Part shown: piece after piece, positions 7,625 through 63,065 of the stretch
How positions within the stretch are numbered: position 1 is the first letter of the stretch
How the letters are laid out: every line of letters starts with the position of its first letter
NCBI GenBank assembly: GCA_027490225.1
Contig: JAIXYK010000006.1
Span: 1,304 to 65,303 of the forward strand
Length of the DNA: 64,000 nt
Direction: 5' to 3'
DNA from: Bacteroidota bacterium
Lineage (GTDB): Bacteria; Bacteroidota; Bacteroidia; M30B66
The notes under the pieces: model-generated
Databases searched by the model: none
Seen by the model: only the letters and a program-made list of their open reading frames with translations
Told to the model about the DNA's origin: nothing
Made by a program: the position numbers and the translations under genes

Positions 7625-7751
7625 AGTAATTCAATATTCAATTAAAAATCAAATGTAAGGCATGCGTTTCTTAATTAATCTTGTTTTTTACCTTAGTATA
7701 AGTGCTTGAATCATTTGAAAAAACCATTCATTTTCAAATAATTTAACATTA

Positions 7752-8279
7752 CTATTTCGCCAAAATAATTTCTTGGGTACTTACCATATTACTTCTGTTT
7801 AAGGCTCTATCTAAAATAGTTACCTCATATTTTATTGTATCATAAGGCGAAAATGGATTGTTGGTAAACAATTCAAAATTCAAATCACCTTGTAACACTT
7901 TGTTTTGTCCTACGGGTGTTAAATAAGGAATCCGGCTATTGTTTGTAAGTGTATCACCTCCTGGTTCAATTGGAGGCAGCACAATCTTAATCCATTCTCC
8001 ATTTTGCTTTTCGAAATAATTAATGAAGAAATTAAAGTAAAACTTAGAACCATAATTAAACGGAGGAAAAGTATCAGATGGACTCAAACCCATATCGCCA
8101 TCACCATCTGTGAAAGCTAATCGCAAAACACCAGATGAGTCTTTATTTGAAGAATTCTTTATCTGATCAAAACCCACAAAAGTCAATGTTGGAATATGAC
8201 TAACCACTTCTTGTTTTTTACATCCATAAAAGAACATAATCAATAAAATAAACTTGAGTACTTTTGGAACCTGAAGCAT
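7752..8279 (-). CDS. Hypothetical lipoprotein
   Basis: The 175-aa ORF has a signal peptide with a lipobox-like FFYGC motif. No family was recognised. Confidence 0.45.
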   Translation of the reverse strand: MLQVPKVLKFILLIMFFYGCKKQEVVSHIPTLTFVGFDQIKNSSNKDSSGVLRLAFTDGDGDMGLSPSDTFPPFNYGSKFYFNFFINYFEKQNGEWIKIVLPPIEPGGDTLTNNSRIPYLTPVGQNKVLQGDLNFELFTNNPFSPYDTIKYEVTILDRALNRSNMVSTQEIILAK

Positions 8280-54831: not shown

Positions 54832-55164
54832 TTAAGCACGCTTAAACTTTAACTGCAAGCGTTCTACTGGCCTGCCTTTAACAATATGTTCATCAACAAT
54901 TTCTTGCACATCGTTTAATTGTACATTGCCGTAAAAAACACCATCTGGATACACCACTACTGTAGGACCCGATTCGCATAAATCAATACAACCAGCTTTT
55001 TGAGCCCTGATTGGAACATCAAGGTGATAATCGTTGATTGCTTTTTTAAATGCAACTGTTAATGCCAAACCATGTTCTTCACCACAACTTGGGCGTGGCG
55101 CATTTGCAGGACGTTGGTTTGTACAAATAAATATATGCTTGCTGTATTTTAAATTTTCTTCCAT
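54832..55164 (-). CDS. Thioredoxin-like [2Fe-2S] ferredoxin family protein
   Basis: Cys residues are spaced as CTNQ...C...CIDLCESGP, as in NuoE/HoxF-type 2Fe-2S ferredoxins. The start was set at MEENLKY. Confidence 0.55.
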   Translation of the reverse strand: MEENLKYSKHIFICTNQRPANAPRPSCGEEHGLALTVAFKKAINDYHLDVPIRAQKAGCIDLCESGPTVVVYPDGVFYGNVQLNDVQEIVDEHIVKGRPVERLQLKFKRA

Positions 55165-55218
55165 GGGTGCAAAATAAACGAACAATCTGTAATTAAAACA
55201 GTTTAATTGAATAAACAT

Positions 55219-56135: not shown

Positions 56136-57086
56136 CTAAACTTTCCATAGTGCACATACATATTCAAAATCTAAAGATTTAAAATTCATTACTTCTTCAA
56201 ATCCAGCAAGTTGTGCATATGCTCTAATTTGTGATTCAGTAAATTTCTGAGAACGTTCTGTATTTATCTTCTCTGCAGCTTTAAATTCAACATTAAAAGA
56301 TAATTCCTCAAAATGTATTGTTTGTTGTACGGTACTTTCTAAGAAACTCAATGCGGCTTGTTGTTTTTCGTCAAAAATAGGAGCATGTTTCCATTTATCT
56401 AAATCGAAATTGGCGCCTAATTCTCGGTTCATTCTTCGCAACAAATTCAAATTAAATTCTTTCGTAACGCCAGCTTTATCGTTATATGCAGCTAATATTG
56501 TTTCTGGAGCTTTTACCAAGTCAAAACCAATGAGGACATATTCTCCTTTATTAAGATTTTGGTTGATTTGCTTTAAAAATATTTGCATCTCTTCCAAAGT
56601 CATGTTTCCAATATTAGAACCAAGAAAAAGTACTAACTTTTGTTTATCAGCCTTAACTTTTAATATTTCAAGTGCTTCGAAATATTCAGCTTGTTGAGGA
56701 AATATTTTTAAACCAGGAAATTCTTGTAAAACAGAATTCTTCAAAGAATCTAGGGCATTTCCTGAAATATCGATGGGAAGATATTCAACCTCAATCTTCA
56801 TTTCTATTAATTTCCTCAATAAGATTTTTGTCTTAATGCCATCACCTGCGCCCAGTTCAATAAGTTGGAGTGATTTATTTGCGTCAACAAAAGATAAAAT
56901 GCTGGCTGCATTTTCTGTAAGCAAATCGAATTCTGTTCGGGTTAAATAATACTCAGGCAGAGCCATTATTTCCTGAAACAAAGCATCTCCTATTTGGTCA
57001 TATAAAAACCTTGAAGGAATTGATTTTTCCGAACCATTAAGCCCTATTAAAGTGGCTTTTCCTAAATCAGAAAGCTTTTTGTCCAT
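56136..57086 (-). CDS. egtD: L-histidine N-alpha-methyltransferase (EgtD-like)
   Basis: The 316-aa SAM-dependent methyltransferase has an EgtD-like N-terminus (SRFLYDQIGDALFQEIMALPEYYLTRTE) and the LIELGAGDG motif. It lies immediately downstream of egtB. Confidence 0.7.
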   Translation of the reverse strand: MDKKLSDLGKATLIGLNGSEKSIPSRFLYDQIGDALFQEIMALPEYYLTRTEFDLLTENAASILSFVDANKSLQLIELGAGDGIKTKILLRKLIEMKIEVEYLPIDISGNALDSLKNSVLQEFPGLKIFPQQAEYFEALEILKVKADKQKLVLFLGSNIGNMTLEEMQIFLKQINQNLNKGEYVLIGFDLVKAPETILAAYNDKAGVTKEFNLNLLRRMNRELGANFDLDKWKHAPIFDEKQQAALSFLESTVQQTIHFEELSFNVEFKAAEKINTERSQKFTESQIRAYAQLAGFEEVMNFKSLDFEYVCALWKV

Positions 57087-58232
57087 TTATTTTGCCAACC
57101 TCAACCCTGTAAATTGCCACCTTGCAGTTGGGGGAAAGAAATTACGGTATGTTTTTCTGGAATGATCCGCTGCTGTAGCCAATGAAGCTCCACGTAATAC
57201 CATTTGATTGATCATAAATTTTCCATTGTATTCACCAATTGCGCCTTTTGGTTTTTCGAACCGAGGATAGGGCAAATAAGCAGAATTGGTCCATTCCCAC
57301 CTTCTGCCCCAGTTGAGTGAATCTGCTGCAGCTTCCCATTCAAATTCTGTTGGTAGCCTTTTTCCTGCCCATTCTGCATAAGCCGCGGCTTCGTAAAAAC
57401 TAATGTGCATTACTGCCGCATCGGGCGATAAAAGTTTTCTGCCATTCAGCGTATAAGTGCTCCAGCCCTCGTTTTCATTATTTTCCCAATATAATGGCGC
57501 ATAAATGTTTTCTTTTTTCAACCATGCCAAAGCATCAGCATGCCAAAGCAAGGGTTTTTCATAACCACCATCTTCTATAAATTCTGCCCATTCTACATTT
57601 CTCACCAAGGAATTTGCAATTGAAAATTCTTCCAGATAAACCTTATGTTGCCCCAGTTCATTATCAAAACAAAACCCTTCACCTTCAAAACCAATTGTTT
57701 GTAATCCTTCAGGAATTGTTATCCAATCTGTTTTTTGCCATTCGTCTTTATTTTCACCAAGCTCTACAACTTTAATGTCTAAAGGATTTTGGCCAAATGA
57801 ATACTTCAAATCCGTATACATTAACTCCTGGTGCTGTTGCTCATGCTGGAGACCTAATTCGAGCAAATCATCCATCAAATTATTTTCAAGTTTCATTTCC
57901 AGTAGCTCGGCCATGTGTGTATCCACATACGCTCGGTATTCTAGAATTTCTCTTACTGTTGGGCGCGATAAATAACCTCGTTCGCTCCTAACAGTTCTGG
58001 TGCCCTGTGTTTCATAATAGCTATTAAACAAAAAGTCGTAAGCCTCATGGTATTCCTTGTATTTCGTATGAAATGGTTTCAAAACAAAAGTTTCGAAAAA
58101 CCAAGTAGTATGGGCAAGATGCCATTTCAACGGACTAACATCTTCCATTGGTTGCAACACAAAATCCTCTGGTTCTAATGGAGCGCAGATATTTTCAGTT
58201 TGCTGCCTTATTTCGTTATACCTTTCTAGCAT
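57087..58232 (-). CDS. egtB: Ergothioneine-biosynthesis sulfoxide synthase (EgtB-like; DinB_2 plus FGE-sulfatase domains)
   Basis: An N-terminal DinB-like domain contains the His motif (KWHLAHTTWFFE). The C-terminal FGE-like domain has RGASLAT. The start ATG overlaps the carbonic-anhydrase stop (TAATG). Confidence 0.75.
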   Translation of the reverse strand: MLERYNEIRQQTENICAPLEPEDFVLQPMEDVSPLKWHLAHTTWFFETFVLKPFHTKYKEYHEAYDFLFNSYYETQGTRTVRSERGYLSRPTVREILEYRAYVDTHMAELLEMKLENNLMDDLLELGLQHEQQHQELMYTDLKYSFGQNPLDIKVVELGENKDEWQKTDWITIPEGLQTIGFEGEGFCFDNELGQHKVYLEEFSIANSLVRNVEWAEFIEDGGYEKPLLWHADALAWLKKENIYAPLYWENNENEGWSTYTLNGRKLLSPDAAVMHISFYEAAAYAEWAGKRLPTEFEWEAAADSLNWGRRWEWTNSAYLPYPRFEKPKGAIGEYNGKFMINQMVLRGASLATAADHSRKTYRNFFPPTARWQFTGLRLAK

Positions 58233-58879
58233 TAGTGACCAATAATTCCTTGTTCAAATTTACATACCTCTTTCAATGTTTCCTCATTGTTTATCATAGA
58301 AGTTTGCTCTTTCACATAACCTGTCCCAATATCATACACCCAACCATGCAACCAAGGATTTTTTCTTTCATTCCATGCATTTTGTACAATATTGGTTTTG
58401 CCCAAGTTGTATACCTGTTCTATTACACTTAGTTCTACCAAGCGGTTAAAGCGTTCACTTTCGTTCAAAACCTCCAATTGTTTCCAGTAAAAGTTCTGTG
58501 TATCCTTTATTTGACGCAGCCAGTTATCAATCAAGCCATATTGATGAGTTCCCATAGCAGCCTTCACTCCACCACAACCGTAATGACCACAAACAATTAC
58601 ATGCTCTACTTTTAGCACCTCTACTGCATATTGCAAAACACTTAGCATGTTCATGTCAGTTTGTATAACAAGGTTTGCAATGTTGCGATGCACAAATATT
58701 TCACCAGGTTGCGTTTTGGTTATTTCATTGGGCGGCACACGGCTATCGGCGCAGCCAATCCAAAGCACTTTTGGTTCTTGACCTTTAGCAGAATTTACAA
58801 AAAAGTTAGGGTCTTTGGCAAGGTGTTCTTGCACAAAATTTTCGTTATTTTCTAAGAGTTGTGTTATGTAATCTTTCAT
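58232..58879 (-). CDS. Beta-class carbonic anhydrase
   Basis: The zinc ligands are in CADSRV and HYGCGG. The protein is 215 aa. Confidence 0.85.
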   Translation of the reverse strand: MKDYITQLLENNENFVQEHLAKDPNFFVNSAKGQEPKVLWIGCADSRVPPNEITKTQPGEIFVHRNIANLVIQTDMNMLSVLQYAVEVLKVEHVIVCGHYGCGGVKAAMGTHQYGLIDNWLRQIKDTQNFYWKQLEVLNESERFNRLVELSVIEQVYNLGKTNIVQNAWNERKNPWLHGWVYDIGTGYVKEQTSMINNEETLKEVCKFEQGIIGH

Positions 58880-59027
58880 AATTATTGGGGCGGCAACCGG
58901 GCTATCGTTTCAAGCTCCTACGGAGGCTTTCCACTTCTATCCCTGCCGCTTACAGGTAAAATTAAAAATTCGGCAGCAATTTAGGCAATCGTAGATTAAG
59001 AGAAATTTAAGTTTGGCGTTCGTTCTA

Positions 59028-59954
59028 TTAAAAAATCTTAGCATACAGCTGCTGCTCAGCTTCTGCATGAATATGCGCATGGTCCAAAATTTCAAACACG
59101 TTGTTTTTAATAGTATGAGCAATGTCGCCCGTTGGCAAGTCGTTGCAATCGAGACCAAATGGGTCTTCTATTTCTTCGGCCATCATTTCTACACCAATAA
59201 ATGCAAAGAAAACAAACATTACTGCAGGTATTGCCCAGTAACCCATTTCAGGAGCCATTGCAATGGGCATTAAAATGGCGTAAGCTGTAATAAATACTTT
59301 TAAATATACATTGTACGAAAATGGAATTGGTGTTTTCTTAATTCGTTCGCAAGCACCTGCAATGTCCATCAAGGCTTGCATGTGTGGTTTGTAATTCAAA
59401 ATATCTTCCCCAGTAATAATTTTTTCTCGGTACTGGTGTTCTACCAATTGGTGAATTTGCGCGCTAATGTAATTTGGCAAGTGTTGTTTTTTAGGATAGT
59501 TAACTTTATCTTCTTCTGTTAAGAAAATCAATTCTTCTATTTTAACTCCTCCGCGTAAATGTTCTTTTAAGGCAATTGCAAAATTGGCAATCAAAGCAGA
59601 GATTCTATGTCTTGTTTTATGATCTTCCAAAGGAATGGTGCTGTGCGCTGTAATAGCTAAATTCCTGCTATTGTTAACCAAAGCTCCCCACAATTGGCGG
59701 CCTTCCCACCAACGGTCATATGAGGTGTTGGTCCTGAAAACCAACAAAATACTGAGTACAATTCCCAGTAAAGAGAAAACAGAAGTAGAAAACGAAAAGC
59801 TTTCCATATTAAATACTTCTAATTCCAATACACATACTACAGCTGTAAAAACTCCAATGGAGCCAACTGAACGCATTATTTTGGTCATTGTCCAAGACCT
59901 GAACAAATGTGTAATATCTTTTAGCCAATGTTTATTTGATTCGTAAACTATCAT
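59028..59954 (-). CDS. Bestrophin/UPF0187 (YneE) family anion channel homologue
   Basis: The 308-aa ORF has four TM segments, plus the RTNTSYDRWWEGR and R..W..L motifs typical of bestrophin-like proteins. Confidence 0.65.
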   Translation of the reverse strand: MIVYESNKHWLKDITHLFRSWTMTKIMRSVGSIGVFTAVVCVLELEVFNMESFSFSTSVFSLLGIVLSILLVFRTNTSYDRWWEGRQLWGALVNNSRNLAITAHSTIPLEDHKTRHRISALIANFAIALKEHLRGGVKIEELIFLTEEDKVNYPKKQHLPNYISAQIHQLVEHQYREKIITGEDILNYKPHMQALMDIAGACERIKKTPIPFSYNVYLKVFITAYAILMPIAMAPEMGYWAIPAVMFVFFAFIGVEMMAEEIEDPFGLDCNDLPTGDIAHTIKNNVFEILDHAHIHAEAEQQLYAKIF

Positions 59955-59987: not shown

Positions 59988-61649
59988 TTAAACTTCAGCT
60001 AAATAGCGGTGTACAAACGAAATAGCCATTGCACCTTCGCCAACAGCCGAAGCTACACGGTTCATAGCTCCCGAACGCACATCTCCCGCAGCAAAAATCC
60101 CTGGAATACTTGTTTCTAATAGATATGGTTCACGAGGTTGTTTCCAGTTTTTCTTAAAATCATCTTTCAATTGCAAATCTCTTCCAGTAAGCACAAAACC
60201 CTTGTCATCTTTAAATAATTCATCAGGTGTCCAATCTGTAAATGGTTTTGCACCAATAAAGATGAATAATGCTGCGGCATCAAAACATTCACTTTTATTC
60301 TCTTTGTAAAATTTAATTTTCACCCTTTCTAAACTATCTCCTCCTTCTACGCTTTCTATTTCCGAGTTTCCTAAAACAGCAATGTTTGGGGTTTCTGCAA
60401 TTTGGTCTATAAGGTAAGAAGACATGGTTGCAGTTAAATCGGGTTTTCTTATTACAATAAATACATTTTTCGAAAACTTGCTCAAATACATGGCTGCTTG
60501 ACCCGCGCTGTTTCCGCCTCCAACTATATAAACATCTTTGTCTTTGCAGGCATGTGCTTCAGTGTTGGCTGCACCATAATACACACCAGCACCTGTAAAT
60601 TGTGCCAAACCTTCCGTATCTAATTGTCTGTAAGAAACGCCAGAAGTAATAACCAAACTTTTGGTTGTAATGATTGCTCCATCTTTTAAATGCAACATTT
60701 TATATTGGTCGCGCAACTCAATTTTTACGACTTCTTGCGGACTTAACATTTCTGTACCAAAACGAGTAGCCTGTGTTACAGCTCTTCTGGTTAAATCTGC
60801 ACCGCTTAATCCTGTGGGAAAACCTAAGTAATTTTCAATTCTTGAAGATGTTCCGGCTTGTCCGCCAGGTGCATGTTTTTCTATGACCAATGTTTTTAAT
60901 CCTTCCGATGCTCCATAAACTGCCGCTGCCAATCCCGAGGGCCCTGCTCCAATAATTGCTACATCATACAAATCTGAAGATGCCGATGGATTTAATCCAA
61001 TTTTTTTTGCGATATCAGTAATTTCAGGATTTACAGAGAAACTTCCATCTTGGTAAAACACAACAGGTAATTGCGATGTTTTTAATCCATTAATTTCTAA
61101 CAACTCAGTTGCTTTCTCATTGGTAAGCAAGTCTAGCCATTGAAATGGAAACAAATTGCCAGATAAGAAATCCTTCACCGCATGCGATTTTGGGGAATAT
61201 TGATAGCCAACCACACGAATTCCAGCATAATCAGGAATTACAGTGCTTTGCCATTCCTCTAACAAATCATCCAACACTGGAAACAACTTTTCCTCTGGCG
61301 GATCCCATGGTTTCATGAGGTAATAATCTAAATGTACATCATTAATCGCCTTGATTGCTGCGTCTGTATCAGAATAAGCAGTAAGCAAAACGCGTTTCGC
61401 ATCGGGAAAAAATTCCCTGGCTTTTTCTAAAAAATCAACACCTTGCATTTCAGGCATTTTCTGGTCAGAAAGAAAAAGTGCTACCGATTCGCCTTTATTT
61501 TTTAATTCCTGCAAGCTTTCCAGCGCTTCATTGGCCGAAATGGTGCTCAAAATACGGTAATCGTTTCGGTATCGGGATTTTAAATCGCGGGTTACGGCTC
61601 TTAAAACCTGTTGGTCATCATCAACACAAAATAGTATGGCTTGTTTCAT
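59988..61649 (-). CDS. Response-regulator receiver domain fused to a thioredoxin-reductase-like FAD/NAD(P)-binding oxidoreductase
   Basis: The N-terminal REC domain has its phospho-acceptor Asp in FLSDQKMPEMQG and K in YYLMKPW. The C-terminal domain has two dinucleotide-binding motifs (DVAIIGAGPSG and VYIVGGGNSAG). The TrxR CxxC redox motif is absent; only AHAC is present. Confidence 0.75.
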   Translation of the reverse strand: MKQAILFCVDDDQQVLRAVTRDLKSRYRNDYRILSTISANEALESLQELKNKGESVALFLSDQKMPEMQGVDFLEKAREFFPDAKRVLLTAYSDTDAAIKAINDVHLDYYLMKPWDPPEEKLFPVLDDLLEEWQSTVIPDYAGIRVVGYQYSPKSHAVKDFLSGNLFPFQWLDLLTNEKATELLEINGLKTSQLPVVFYQDGSFSVNPEITDIAKKIGLNPSASSDLYDVAIIGAGPSGLAAAVYGASEGLKTLVIEKHAPGGQAGTSSRIENYLGFPTGLSGADLTRRAVTQATRFGTEMLSPQEVVKIELRDQYKMLHLKDGAIITTKSLVITSGVSYRQLDTEGLAQFTGAGVYYGAANTEAHACKDKDVYIVGGGNSAGQAAMYLSKFSKNVFIVIRKPDLTATMSSYLIDQIAETPNIAVLGNSEIESVEGGDSLERVKIKFYKENKSECFDAAALFIFIGAKPFTDWTPDELFKDDKGFVLTGRDLQLKDDFKKNWKQPREPYLLETSIPGIFAAGDVRSGAMNRVASAVGEGAMAISFVHRYLAEV

Positions 61650-61658
61650 TATTTCTTT

Positions 61659-63065
61659 TTAGTTGAATGGAATACATACTTCAAATTCGGTTCTTCCAGG
61701 TTCTGAAATTACAGTAACTTTTCCATTGTGTTGCTTAACAATTCTATTTACCACATCTAAACCCAGACCTGTGCCTTTTCCCATTTCTTTGGTAGTAAAA
61801 AACGGGTCGAAAATTTTATTTTTAACTTCTGCAGGAATTCCTGGACCATTATCAGTTAGTGAAACCTTTAAGAAATCTCCATCTTTTCTTGTATTTATGG
61901 TTAGCGTTGGATTTGATGTATTTTCTAATGCATCAATGGCATTGTCAATTAAGTTCGTCCACACCTGGTTGAGTTCGCTGATATACACTTTAGCTTCTGG
62001 TAAATCTTTCTGAAAATCCTCAATCAATTGAATATTGTTCTTCTTGAATTTATGGTTCAACATGGTCATGGTATTTCGAATTCCATCGTGAATATTAGAC
62101 AATTGCTTATCTGCAGCTTTGTCCATATGCGTGAAATTTTTAACCGAAGCAACCAAATCTGAAATGCGTTTAGATGCTTCCTGAATGTCGCTCACCATTT
62201 TGTCTGTAATTAAGTTGTTGTTTATCCAACCCAGCACCGGACTTAAATCTTTTTCAGGAATTGTTTCTACAAAAAAATCGAAATCCTCATCTGTAAATCC
62301 AAATTCTACAAAGTTTTCAGCTATTTCGTAGGCATTATCAATATTGTGTACTTCTAACCAATCTACCAATTCATCTTCACAGGCGGCGCGTTCCATCAAA
62401 CTCAGTTTTGTGCTTGCTCTGTCAGGATTGTTTAAATGATTAAACAACCTATTATTTAAAGCATCTACTTGTTCATTCGTCATTCCAATTTCAATCACCC
62501 TTTTAAATGTTTCGGGTTGTAATTGCAAATGTTGCATTAATGAAGTAGAACTTCTCACAATTGCCGCTGCAGGATTATTTAACTCATGGGCTAAACCAGC
62601 GCTTAGTTTTCCCAAAGCCATCATTTTCTCATTCTGCGTTTGCATTTGGGTAAATTCCCTTACACGCGTAGTCATTTCATGCACAAAACGAGTGGTCAAT
62701 TCGTGGTGCTCCCGAATCATTTCCGGGAATTTTGTTTTTGGAAAGGAGAGAATAGTCGCCTTTTTTGATACAATTCCTTCAGCCCGGCCAACAGTAGCGC
62801 GAGAATAAGGCAAATTGCCAGTCAAATCGCCTGAATTAAGTACGTATAATTCGCGTTGTTGACCATTTTGCGAGAAGCGAATTTTCACCTCTCCAGCAAT
62901 CATTATATGCGTAAAATCAAGCGGTTCGTTTGGCTTAAAAAGGTATTCCCCATCTTCAAGATGAAGTATAGTTGCCTCCTTTACATACCATTCAATTTGT
63001 TCTATTGGTAAATCCTTAAAAATTTCAAAATCTTTAAGGATGTTTATGGCTTCGGATTGTGTCAT
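61659..63065 (-). CDS. Cytoplasmic sensor histidine kinase with an N-terminal cyclic-nucleotide-binding (cNMP) domain
   Basis: The cNMP-binding fold is FKDLPIEQIEWYV...GEYLFKPNEPLDFTHIMIAGEVKI. The HisKA H-box is LAHELNNP. The HATPase_c motifs are DNGPGIP and GTGLGL. No TM segments are present. Confidence 0.75.
   Translation of the reverse strand: MTQSEAINILKDFEIFKDLPIEQIEWYVKEATILHLEDGEYLFKPNEPLDFTHIMIAGEVKIRFSQNGQQRELYVLNSGDLTGNLPYSRATVGRAEGIVSKKATILSFPKTKFPEMIREHHELTTRFVHEMTTRVREFTQMQTQNEKMMALGKLSAGLAHELNNPAAAIVRSSTSLMQHLQLQPETFKRVIEIGMTNEQVDALNNRLFNHLNNPDRASTKLSLMERAACEDELVDWLEVHNIDNAYEIAENFVEFGFTDEDFDFFVETIPEKDLSPVLGWINNNLITDKMVSDIQEASKRISDLVASVKNFTHMDKAADKQLSNIHDGIRNTMTMLNHKFKKNNIQLIEDFQKDLPEAKVYISELNQVWTNLIDNAIDALENTSNPTLTINTRKDGDFLKVSLTDNGPGIPAEVKNKIFDPFFTTKEMGKGTGLGLDVVNRIVKQHNGKVTVISEPGRTEFEVCIPFN

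Follow-up and report, generated by a model that had tools for sequence, protein, structure and literature searches.

We analyzed a 64,000-nucleotide stretch of contig JAIXYK010000006.1 from a Bacteroidota bacterium (hereafter the window, 64 kb) and found that two adjacent genes on its minus strand encode a soluble histidine kinase and a response regulator (RR) that form a cognate two-component pair, the output of which is of the enzyme type and not DNA-binding. On balance, we lean toward a cytoplasmic two-component system (TCS) in which a ligand-controlled kinase would transfer phosphate from its residue H160 to residue D62 of the RR, thereby gating a thiol-free NAD(P)H/FAD redox activity. An initial annotation, made from the DNA sequence alone, had placed the two genes in the same orientation and 9 nt apart, and both points held when the two minus-strand open reading frames (ORFs) and the spacer between them were read:

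61659..63065, minus strand: sensor histidine kinase gene, 468 aa (ORF, Pfam and NCBIfam domains)
61650..61658, minus strand: spacer from the kinase stop codon to the RR ATG, 9 nt, AAAGAAATA (sequence read)
59988..61649, minus strand: RR gene, 553 aa, with a receiver (REC), a glutaredoxin (Grx)-like domain and a thioredoxin reductase (TrxR)-like flavoprotein (ORF, Pfam/NCBIfam, AlphaFold2 (AF2) model)

Of the domains proposed in that annotation, Pfam recovers cNMP_binding (cyclic nucleotide monophosphate, cNMP), HATPase_c, Response_reg and Pyr_redox_2, with HisKA falling below threshold. We observed no DNA-binding domain among the Pfam and NCBIfam matches of the RR, which carries a Pyr_redox_2 output instead, as had been claimed. 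We detected no further receiver or kinase in the 64-kb window.

The pairing was evaluated across 80 Bacteroidota genome loci containing full-length relatives of the RR (62-69% identity), which we dereplicated at 80% identity into 37 lineages. In 75 of the 80 loci, or 34 of the 37 lineages after dereplication, the gene immediately upstream is co-oriented with that of the RR and encodes a full-length kinase homolog, sensor included (40-55% identity), and an Acidobacteriota locus contains the same two genes in reversed order with a 4-nt overlap. These observations support the cognate pairing that the initial annotation had assumed. The alternative, that the adjacency is coincidental and the real partner of the kinase lies elsewhere, can draw on three of the 80 loci (L007, L022 and L035), in which the kinase is missing, and on nothing else. 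Given the breadth of the association across lineages, its persistence in reversed order in a second phylum, the lack of another candidate partner in the window, and the direct fusion of this sensor type to the same output module (below), we consider this alternative effectively refuted. A 726-aa ORF upstream of the RR in L007 and L035 was considered as a substitute kinase and rejected, as it encodes a DPP-IV peptidase.

Relatives in which the same output is wired differently provide independent evidence for a tie between sensor and flavoprotein. We searched the combined Grx-like and TrxR-like module of the RR (aa 133-553) against 1.84 billion representative proteins, which yielded matches to 3119 clusters (50% identity) at E<=1e-30. 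Among the best 149 module relatives, 53 carry REC and 66 carry a non-REC N-terminal extension; in 59 of these 66, a Pfam cNMP_binding domain is fused directly to the module, and 18 of the 59 fused domains were detected by phmmer using the sensor of the kinase described here. The REC-type and cNMP-fused architectures share 47% identity over 407 aa of the module, and stand-alone proteins consisting of the Grx-like and TrxR-like domains also exist (P0261 and P0277), encoded on contigs too short to show their gene context. The ligand loop of the fused sensors has kept a Glu/Asp and is missing the canonical Arg. The connection of the same output to the same type of sensor, by either a phosphorelay or a fusion, strongly argues for control of the flavoprotein by the sensor, and the functional link proposed in the initial annotation stands.

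To describe the RR, we used an AF2 model built from 81 sequences, which resolves three domains (predicted local distance difference test (pLDDT) 90.2, predicted TM-score (pTM) 0.72). Its features are as follows:

61242..61640, minus strand: receiver domain REC, aa 4-136 (Pfam, AF2)
61464-61466, minus strand: codon of the phospho-acceptor D62 (conservation)
61002..61220, minus strand: glutaredoxin/mycoredoxin-like domain, aa 144-216 (AF2, profile match)
61185-61196, minus strand: S152-P-K-S155, replacing CxxC (alignment on CGYC)
59991..60971, minus strand: TrxR-like FAD/NAD(P)H module, aa 227-553 (Pyr_redox_2, structure matches)
60558-60578, minus strand: former CxxC site, Y358-G-A-A-N-T-E364 (alignment to solved TrxRs)

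The receiver (Response_reg at aa 7-118, E 1.4e-14) is closest to HD-GYP/NosR-type and HupR receivers and is intact, with none of the 81 Bacteroidota orthologs deviating at D10, D11, D62, T90, Y109 or K113. Identity of the RR across Bacteroidota orders is 63-82% over the full 553 aa, which indicates strong purifying selection on this protein.

The C-terminal module (Pyr_redox_2 at aa 228-539, E 1e-34) is most similar to TrxRs and AhpF (E 1e-43 to 1e-27), with TrxR 7jyp as the best sequence match (E 5e-43), and it falls below the cutoffs of both the TrxR equivalog TIGR01292 (236 bits; cutoff 343) and the AhpF family TIGR03140 (153 bits; cutoff 503). The motifs for FAD (GAGPSG and AAGDV) and for NAD(P)H (GGGNSAGQAA) are fully or almost fully conserved, and R401 and K/R402 fall where TrxR has its HRR motif. 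The CxxC positions of solved TrxRs align to G359 and T363, with one residue inserted, and the neighboring acid catalyst of TrxR (Asp139 in E. coli TrxR) corresponds to E364; Y358, G359, T363 and E364 do not vary among the Bacteroidota orthologs. The RR contains three cysteines in total (C8, C368 and C455), none of which is conserved as a redox residue. C368, which forms the sole Cys column above 50% (70 of 81 Bacteroidota orthologs, otherwise F or V), was considered as a catalytic residue and rejected, as it is F, V, L or M in many members and lies about five residues past the former second Cys.

Between the receiver and the flavoprotein lies a domain of b-a-b-a-b-b-a topology (AF2) that no Pfam model reported in the RR and that the initial annotation overlooked, together with the loss of its redox motif. 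Its profile matches 2lqo (E 1.3e-10), the structure of M. tuberculosis Rv3198.1, a protein known as mycoredoxin-1 and entered in the database as a putative glutaredoxin. The family motif S-P-x-S/T aligns on the CGYC active site of Rv3198.1, the cis-Pro loop residue P195 is present in 130 of 150 relatives, and the Pfam Glutaredoxin model is weakly detected in 13 of 36 family members. Where an active Grx has CxxC or CxxS, the protein described here has SPKS; both cysteines are found in none of the 150 relatives, and one cysteine in 17.

Thus, the initial annotation was right that the reductase fold lacks CxxC, and the loss extends further: a dithiol is present at either former CxxC site in 0 of the 150 closest representative relatives. 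Judged from these alignments, both thiol redox centers are lost across the whole family, and the module cannot be a disulfide reductase. With CxxC gone at both sites, we rejected assignment of the protein as a canonical TrxR or AhpF. The AF2 model resembles the flavin-reducing (FR) state of L. lactis TrxR (5mh4, target-normalized TM-score (TMt) 0.94) far more than the flavin-oxidizing (FO) state (5mjk, TMt 0.64). Such an FR-like model, itself a prediction, fits a module that would still move hydride from NAD(P)H to FAD but has no disulfide left to offer to the flavin.

The initial annotation had compared this CxxC-less fold to ferredoxin/flavodoxin-NADP reductase, a likeness that we found to be weak. 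The TrxR-like ferredoxin-NADP reductases (TrxR-like FNRs; B. subtilis YumC, Chlorobaculum FNR and Thermus 2zbw) do share a TrxR fold without CxxC, and they are a precedent for CxxC-less members of this fold acting as true NAD(P)H:acceptor oxidoreductases. However, they score far below TrxR and AhpF against the RR (E 1e-20 to 1e-13), and the RR has additional Grx-like and REC domains. In addition, TrxR-like FNRs carry a C-terminal extension that stacks an aromatic residue on the flavin. As the RR ends with the last TrxR helix (alignments reach residue 550-553 of 553), it has no extension of this type, and we rejected assignment as a TrxR-like FNR on the basis of both the weak similarity and the missing tail.

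The kinase was modeled in the same way, and the AF2 monomer model is moderately confident (pLDDT 80, pTM 0.37). Its features are as follows:

62709..63065, minus strand: CRP/FNR-type beta-barrel sensor, aa 1-119 (Pfam cNMP_binding, family profile match)
62523..62705, minus strand: continuous helix from the sensor C-helix to helix 1 of the dimerization and histidine phosphotransfer (DHp) hairpin, aa 121-181 (AF2)
62586-62588, minus strand: codon of the phospho-accepting H160, in AHELNNP (conservation, codon check)
62262..62516, minus strand: all-helical insert in the DHp hairpin, aa 184-268, ~85 aa (AF2, conservation)
61662..62255, minus strand: DHp helix 2 (aa 271-312) and catalytic ATP-binding (CA) domain (aa 321-468) (HATPase_c, Foldseek)

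The assignment of the sensor to the CRP/FNR-type fold is sound, given that its family profile matches CRP, PKA-R and the heme/NO sensor DNR at ~1e-8. Pfam places cNMP_binding (PF00027) above its cutoff at aa 35-120 (E 3e-10), and the model has the expected architecture, with strands at aa 32-109 followed by a helix. The ligand loop is non-canonical. In the kinase described here it reads G83-N-L-P-Y-S88-R89, and the family motif is G-x-L-P-[FY]-S-R, in which G83, L85, P86, S88 and R89 are invariant; this motif is kept in the Acidobacteriota homolog despite an overall identity of 37%. In CRP, E72 contacts the ribose 2'-OH and R82/S83 hold the cyclic phosphate. Profile alignments to CRP and PKA-R place Y, N or T at the E72 position of the kinase family and a variable A, G or S at the R82/S83 positions, and CRP has one residue more in this loop, so that the sensor does not have the canonical phosphate-binding cassette G-E ... 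R-[ST]-A.

A cyclic nucleotide ligand had been suggested in the initial annotation, which named absence of the phosphate-binding-cassette residues as grounds for giving up the idea. As the cassette Glu and Arg/Ser are missing, we found cAMP and cGMP to be unsupported as ligands, and the ligand is, on this sequence evidence, probably neither of the two. Other sensors of the CRP/FNR superfamily bind heme (CooA and DNR), 2-oxoglutarate (NtcA) or an Fe-S cluster (FNR). Because R136 and T139 of the C-helix, which the conserved S88-R89 loop faces, are conserved as well, the ligand may be anionic. Taken literally, the initial annotation described a kinase that binds cAMP or cGMP and controls an enzyme resembling ferredoxin/flavodoxin-NADP reductase. 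That reading can call on the above-threshold cNMP_binding match and on the absence of CxxC, as in TrxR-like FNRs, but the cassette residues are not conserved, the loop is short, and the FNR similarity lies at least 20 orders of magnitude below that to TrxR and AhpF in a protein without the flavin-stacking tail; we therefore consider it very unlikely.

As the maximum 19-residue Kyte-Doolittle mean of the kinase is 0.52, it has no membrane segment, in agreement with the initial annotation. Residues H160, E161, L162, N163, N164 and P165 are invariant in 66 kinase homologs, as are the residues of the N, G1, F and G2 boxes (N371/N375, D405-G407-G409, F422 and G431-G435). HATPase_c is found at aa 364-467 (E 1.6e-25). 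By Foldseek, the model matches the folds of HK853, ZraS and CckA, and the CA domain matches those of CckA and ThkA (TMt 0.75-0.88). With the H-box and all ATP-binding boxes present in its sequence, the kinase appears intact as a HisKA-type enzyme. The HisKA match itself is weak (aa 151-189, 21 bits; cutoff 26.9) because the DHp domain is split by the helical insert, which is conserved across the kinase family from Bacteroidota to the Acidobacteriota homolog and contains the invariant residues P184, F187 and E230 (66 homologs). The initial annotation had made the cNMP-type domain the only sensor; it is indeed the only one recognized, although not necessarily the only one present, given the insert at aa 184-268 that was overlooked. 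This insert may provide a second input or a surface on which the RR docks.

Four further minus-strand genes follow the RR:

59028-59954, minus strand: bestrophin-like channel, after a 33-nt gap from the RR (Pfam/NCBIfam)
58232-58879, minus strand: beta-carbonic anhydrase, after a 148-nt gap from the bestrophin gene (Pfam/NCBIfam)
57087-58232, minus strand: EgtB, overlapping the carbonic anhydrase stop codon (TIGR03440, 518 bits, cutoff 360)
56136-57086, minus strand: EgtD, abutting EgtB with 0 nt between them (284 bits, cutoff 291)

These genes (56136..59954) possibly form one transcription unit with the kinase-RR pair. We found no convincing terminator in the gene string from the RR to EgtD, and our scans for sigma-70 promoters and terminators returned no more sites than were found in shuffled sequence, with a tool that does not cover Bacteroidota promoters. 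The same gene order is present in L002, L004 and L041. Ergothioneine genes lie within 6 kb in 14 of the 80 loci (9 of 37 lineages), in three co-oriented arrangements: kinase-RR-bestrophin-(carbonic anhydrase)-EgtB-EgtD, EgtB-EgtD-kinase-RR, and RR-EgtB with no nearby kinase (L007 and L035). A randomly placed single egt locus in a genome of a few Mb would fall inside a 12-kb neighborhood well under 1% of the time, and we therefore conclude that the linkage is real, though confined to a minority of lineages.

This linkage raises the alternative that the RR acts in ergothioneine metabolism, with FADH2 directly reducing oxidized ergothioneine (the disulfide, or the sulfenic acid of the C-S lyase step), the Ser-substituted Grx-like domain binding the thiol, and the kinase tuning the activity to redox demand. 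Consistent with such a role are the presence in the window of EgtB, above its cutoff, and EgtD in the same gene string, the independence of the three arrangements, one of which joins the RR to EgtB without the kinase, and the closeness of the Grx-like domain to mycoredoxin-1, a reader of low-molecular-weight thiols. NADH peroxidase, in which FADH2 reduces a sulfenic acid directly, is a precedent for the chemistry. However, most lineages lack the association, the cNMP-fused relatives that we examined have no Egt neighbors, and the linkage could merely reflect a shared stress regulon, so that we regard this role as distinctly unlikely.

A second neighbor was found more often. A Cys/His-rich protein of ~90 aa with a zf-UBP domain (PF02148, E 1.4e-11), homologous to a nuclear magnetic resonance structure of unknown function (2ida, E 1e-25), is encoded directly downstream of the RR in 48 of the 80 loci (15 of 37 lineages), at positions ~7660-8100 in the loci L001-L080 (e.g. 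L023:7672-7950). In two loci it is encoded directly upstream of a cNMP-fused flavoprotein (L085:5670-5945 and L086:4668-4943). The flavoprotein module may have the zf-UBP protein as its partner or substrate. The neighbors of the cNMP-fused relatives are otherwise variable (a gene resembling carboxymuconolactone decarboxylase (CMD), zf-UBP, and unrelated genes), with no single conserved partner. The CMD/AhpD-like gene (233 aa, weak Pfam match) lies directly before the cNMP-fused flavoprotein in L082/L083 (5289-5990) and L087 (4288-4989), where it follows an acyl-CoA synthetase-like gene, a neighbor that differs from those in Bacteroidota.

The zf-UBP gene and the loss of both redox dithiols in all 150 close relatives also bear on the possibility that the RR is a pseudoenzyme or scaffold, in which a non-catalytic, cysteine-free module would hold FAD and NAD(P)H as structural elements or as a second sensory element, and the output would be an interaction with another protein, such as the zf-UBP protein, that depends on phosphorylation. 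The frequent adjacency of this small conserved gene and the lack of an evident substrate fit this proposal. On the other hand, the FAD and NAD(P)H motifs and E364 have remained invariant or nearly so over deep divergence, which is more typical of a working flavoenzyme, CxxC-less TrxR-like FNRs are true enzymes, and the window itself does not encode the proposed partner. We consider a scaffold unlikely, but a credible competitor to a phosphorylation-gated redox enzyme.

From these observations, we propose how the phosphorylation-gated redox enzyme that we favor could operate. A small ligand, probably not cAMP or cGMP, would bind the barrel, and the signal would pass through the continuous helix to change autophosphorylation at H160. 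The phosphate would then be passed from H160 to D62, and phosphorylation of D62 is predicted to rearrange the REC and Grx-like (and NAD(P)H) domains relative to an obligately dimeric TrxR-like core. This rearrangement would gate hydride flow from NAD(P)H via FAD to an acceptor that can be reduced without a protein dithiol. Ranked from most to least supported by gene context, the candidate acceptors are the zf-UBP metalloprotein, an oxidized ergothioneine species (an oxidized low-molecular-weight sulfur compound such as the disulfide or sulfenate), and generic acceptors (quinone, metal or O2).

Several observations weigh against this proposal. The module has no thiol center, and both its catalytic activity and the domain arrangement of the RR (AF2, pTM 0.72) are predictions. 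Regarding the candidate acceptors, only about one quarter of the lineages have Egt genes close to the pair, and the zf-UBP gene is absent from the window, such that it cannot be an obligatory partner. D62 is lost in 23 of 81 divergent REC fusions (A, G, S or E instead; alignment A3 of P0243-P0388), all of them outside the Bacteroidota group. Two loci of REC-fused relatives outside Bacteroidota (L090 and L091), in which Response_reg is weak or undetected, have no adjacent kinase. Together, the fusions without D62 and the kinase-less loci L090 and L091 suggest that pseudo-receiver versions of the same flavoprotein exist, in which the module would function independently of phosphorylation.

In a more specific and quite unlikely form of our proposal, the TCS would be a ligand-gated electron-flow switch in which a thiol-free flavoprotein, activated when D62 is phosphorylated, reduces directly from FADH2 either a 2-thiohistidine species (ergothioneine disulfide or sulfenate, possibly an intermediate of the last biosynthetic step) or the three-zinc zf-UBP partner. 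If this were true, it would be the first RR with a redox-enzyme output, and, with an ergothioneine substrate, the first bacterial reductase dedicated to ergothioneine metabolism. To our knowledge, almost all RRs that have been studied control transcription, second messengers or motility, and we know of no characterized RR with a flavin oxidoreductase output; a search of the literature also found none. With such an output, the signal would have a direct effect on the redox chemistry of the cell. This large family spans several phyla and is under strong selection, and it offers handles for experiments in its defined cognate kinase, its distinctive non-cNMP loop, a module that is not a disulfide reductase, and candidate partners in zf-UBP and ergothioneine biosynthesis.

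Several known systems share parts of this architecture. In CheB, PleD/WspR, RpfG (HD-GYP) and RsbU-type proteins, REC phosphorylation gates an attached enzyme, as proposed here, whereas the output in the present case is a flavin oxidoreductase module. The low-Mr TrxB and AhpF enzymes share with the RR the two-Rossmann fold and the motifs for FAD (GxGxxG and GD) and NAD(P)H (GGGNSA and R401/K402) (best Foldseek match 6e-30), and AhpF likewise has a thioredoxin-fold domain N-terminal to the reductase. In contrast to these enzymes, the RR lacks CxxC in both the reductase and the thioredoxin-fold domain and has an N-terminal receiver, and where AhpF has tandem thioredoxin folds with CxxC, the RR has a single Grx-like fold with SPKS. 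The single-chain fusions of cNMP-type, Grx-like and TrxR-like domains (named 'thioredoxin reductase (NADPH)' by JGI) have the same output module and the same kind of sensor fold and differ in that the sensor is fused directly, with no phosphorelay; some of them share the zf-UBP neighbor. We consider both 'thioredoxin reductase (NADPH)' and 'cyclic-nucleotide-binding' to be probably misleading annotations for such proteins.

The initial annotation had suggested that this architecture was uncharacterized. This holds for experimental work: full-text literature searches for functional studies of REC-TrxB or cNMP-TrxR fusions returned census mentions only. The architecture itself, however, has already been recorded. 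The combination of REC with thioredoxin reductase is mentioned in a census of RRs (PMC5847659), and a second census has a "TrxB" row in its table, in which a single cyanobacterium carries a TrxB-type regulator and no cyanobacterium but this one has a cNMP_binding kinase (PMC9953108). The RR described here is a full-length member of this REC-TrxB class, of which there are thousands of 553-aa near-full-length homologs, some under the NCBI product name 'fused response regulator/thioredoxin-disulfide reductase'. The censuses list only REC and TrxB, and not the Grx-like domain, the CxxC losses, the cNMP-type kinase or the zf-UBP and Egt neighbors. The features that appear to be unrecorded are the doubly cysteine-less Grx-TrxR module, the non-cNMP loop, the fixed kinase with its DHp insert, and the zf-UBP and Egt linkage.

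Two minor observations were made downstream of the RR. Within the 148 nt that separate the bestrophin gene from the carbonic anhydrase gene lies a full-length match to Flavo-1 RNA (RF01705; 58891-58961, minus strand) that is below threshold (32.9 bits; gathering score 42; local E 2e-5). It was the only Rfam match in the window, and no match at the gathering score was obtained in 11 related loci. Approximately 1 kb past EgtD, a 128-aa ORF (54832-55218, minus strand) has a weak match, below cutoff (E 4e-5), to the Suc_Fer-like family of thioredoxin-like [2Fe-2S] ferredoxins, and its product is a conceivable electron carrier.

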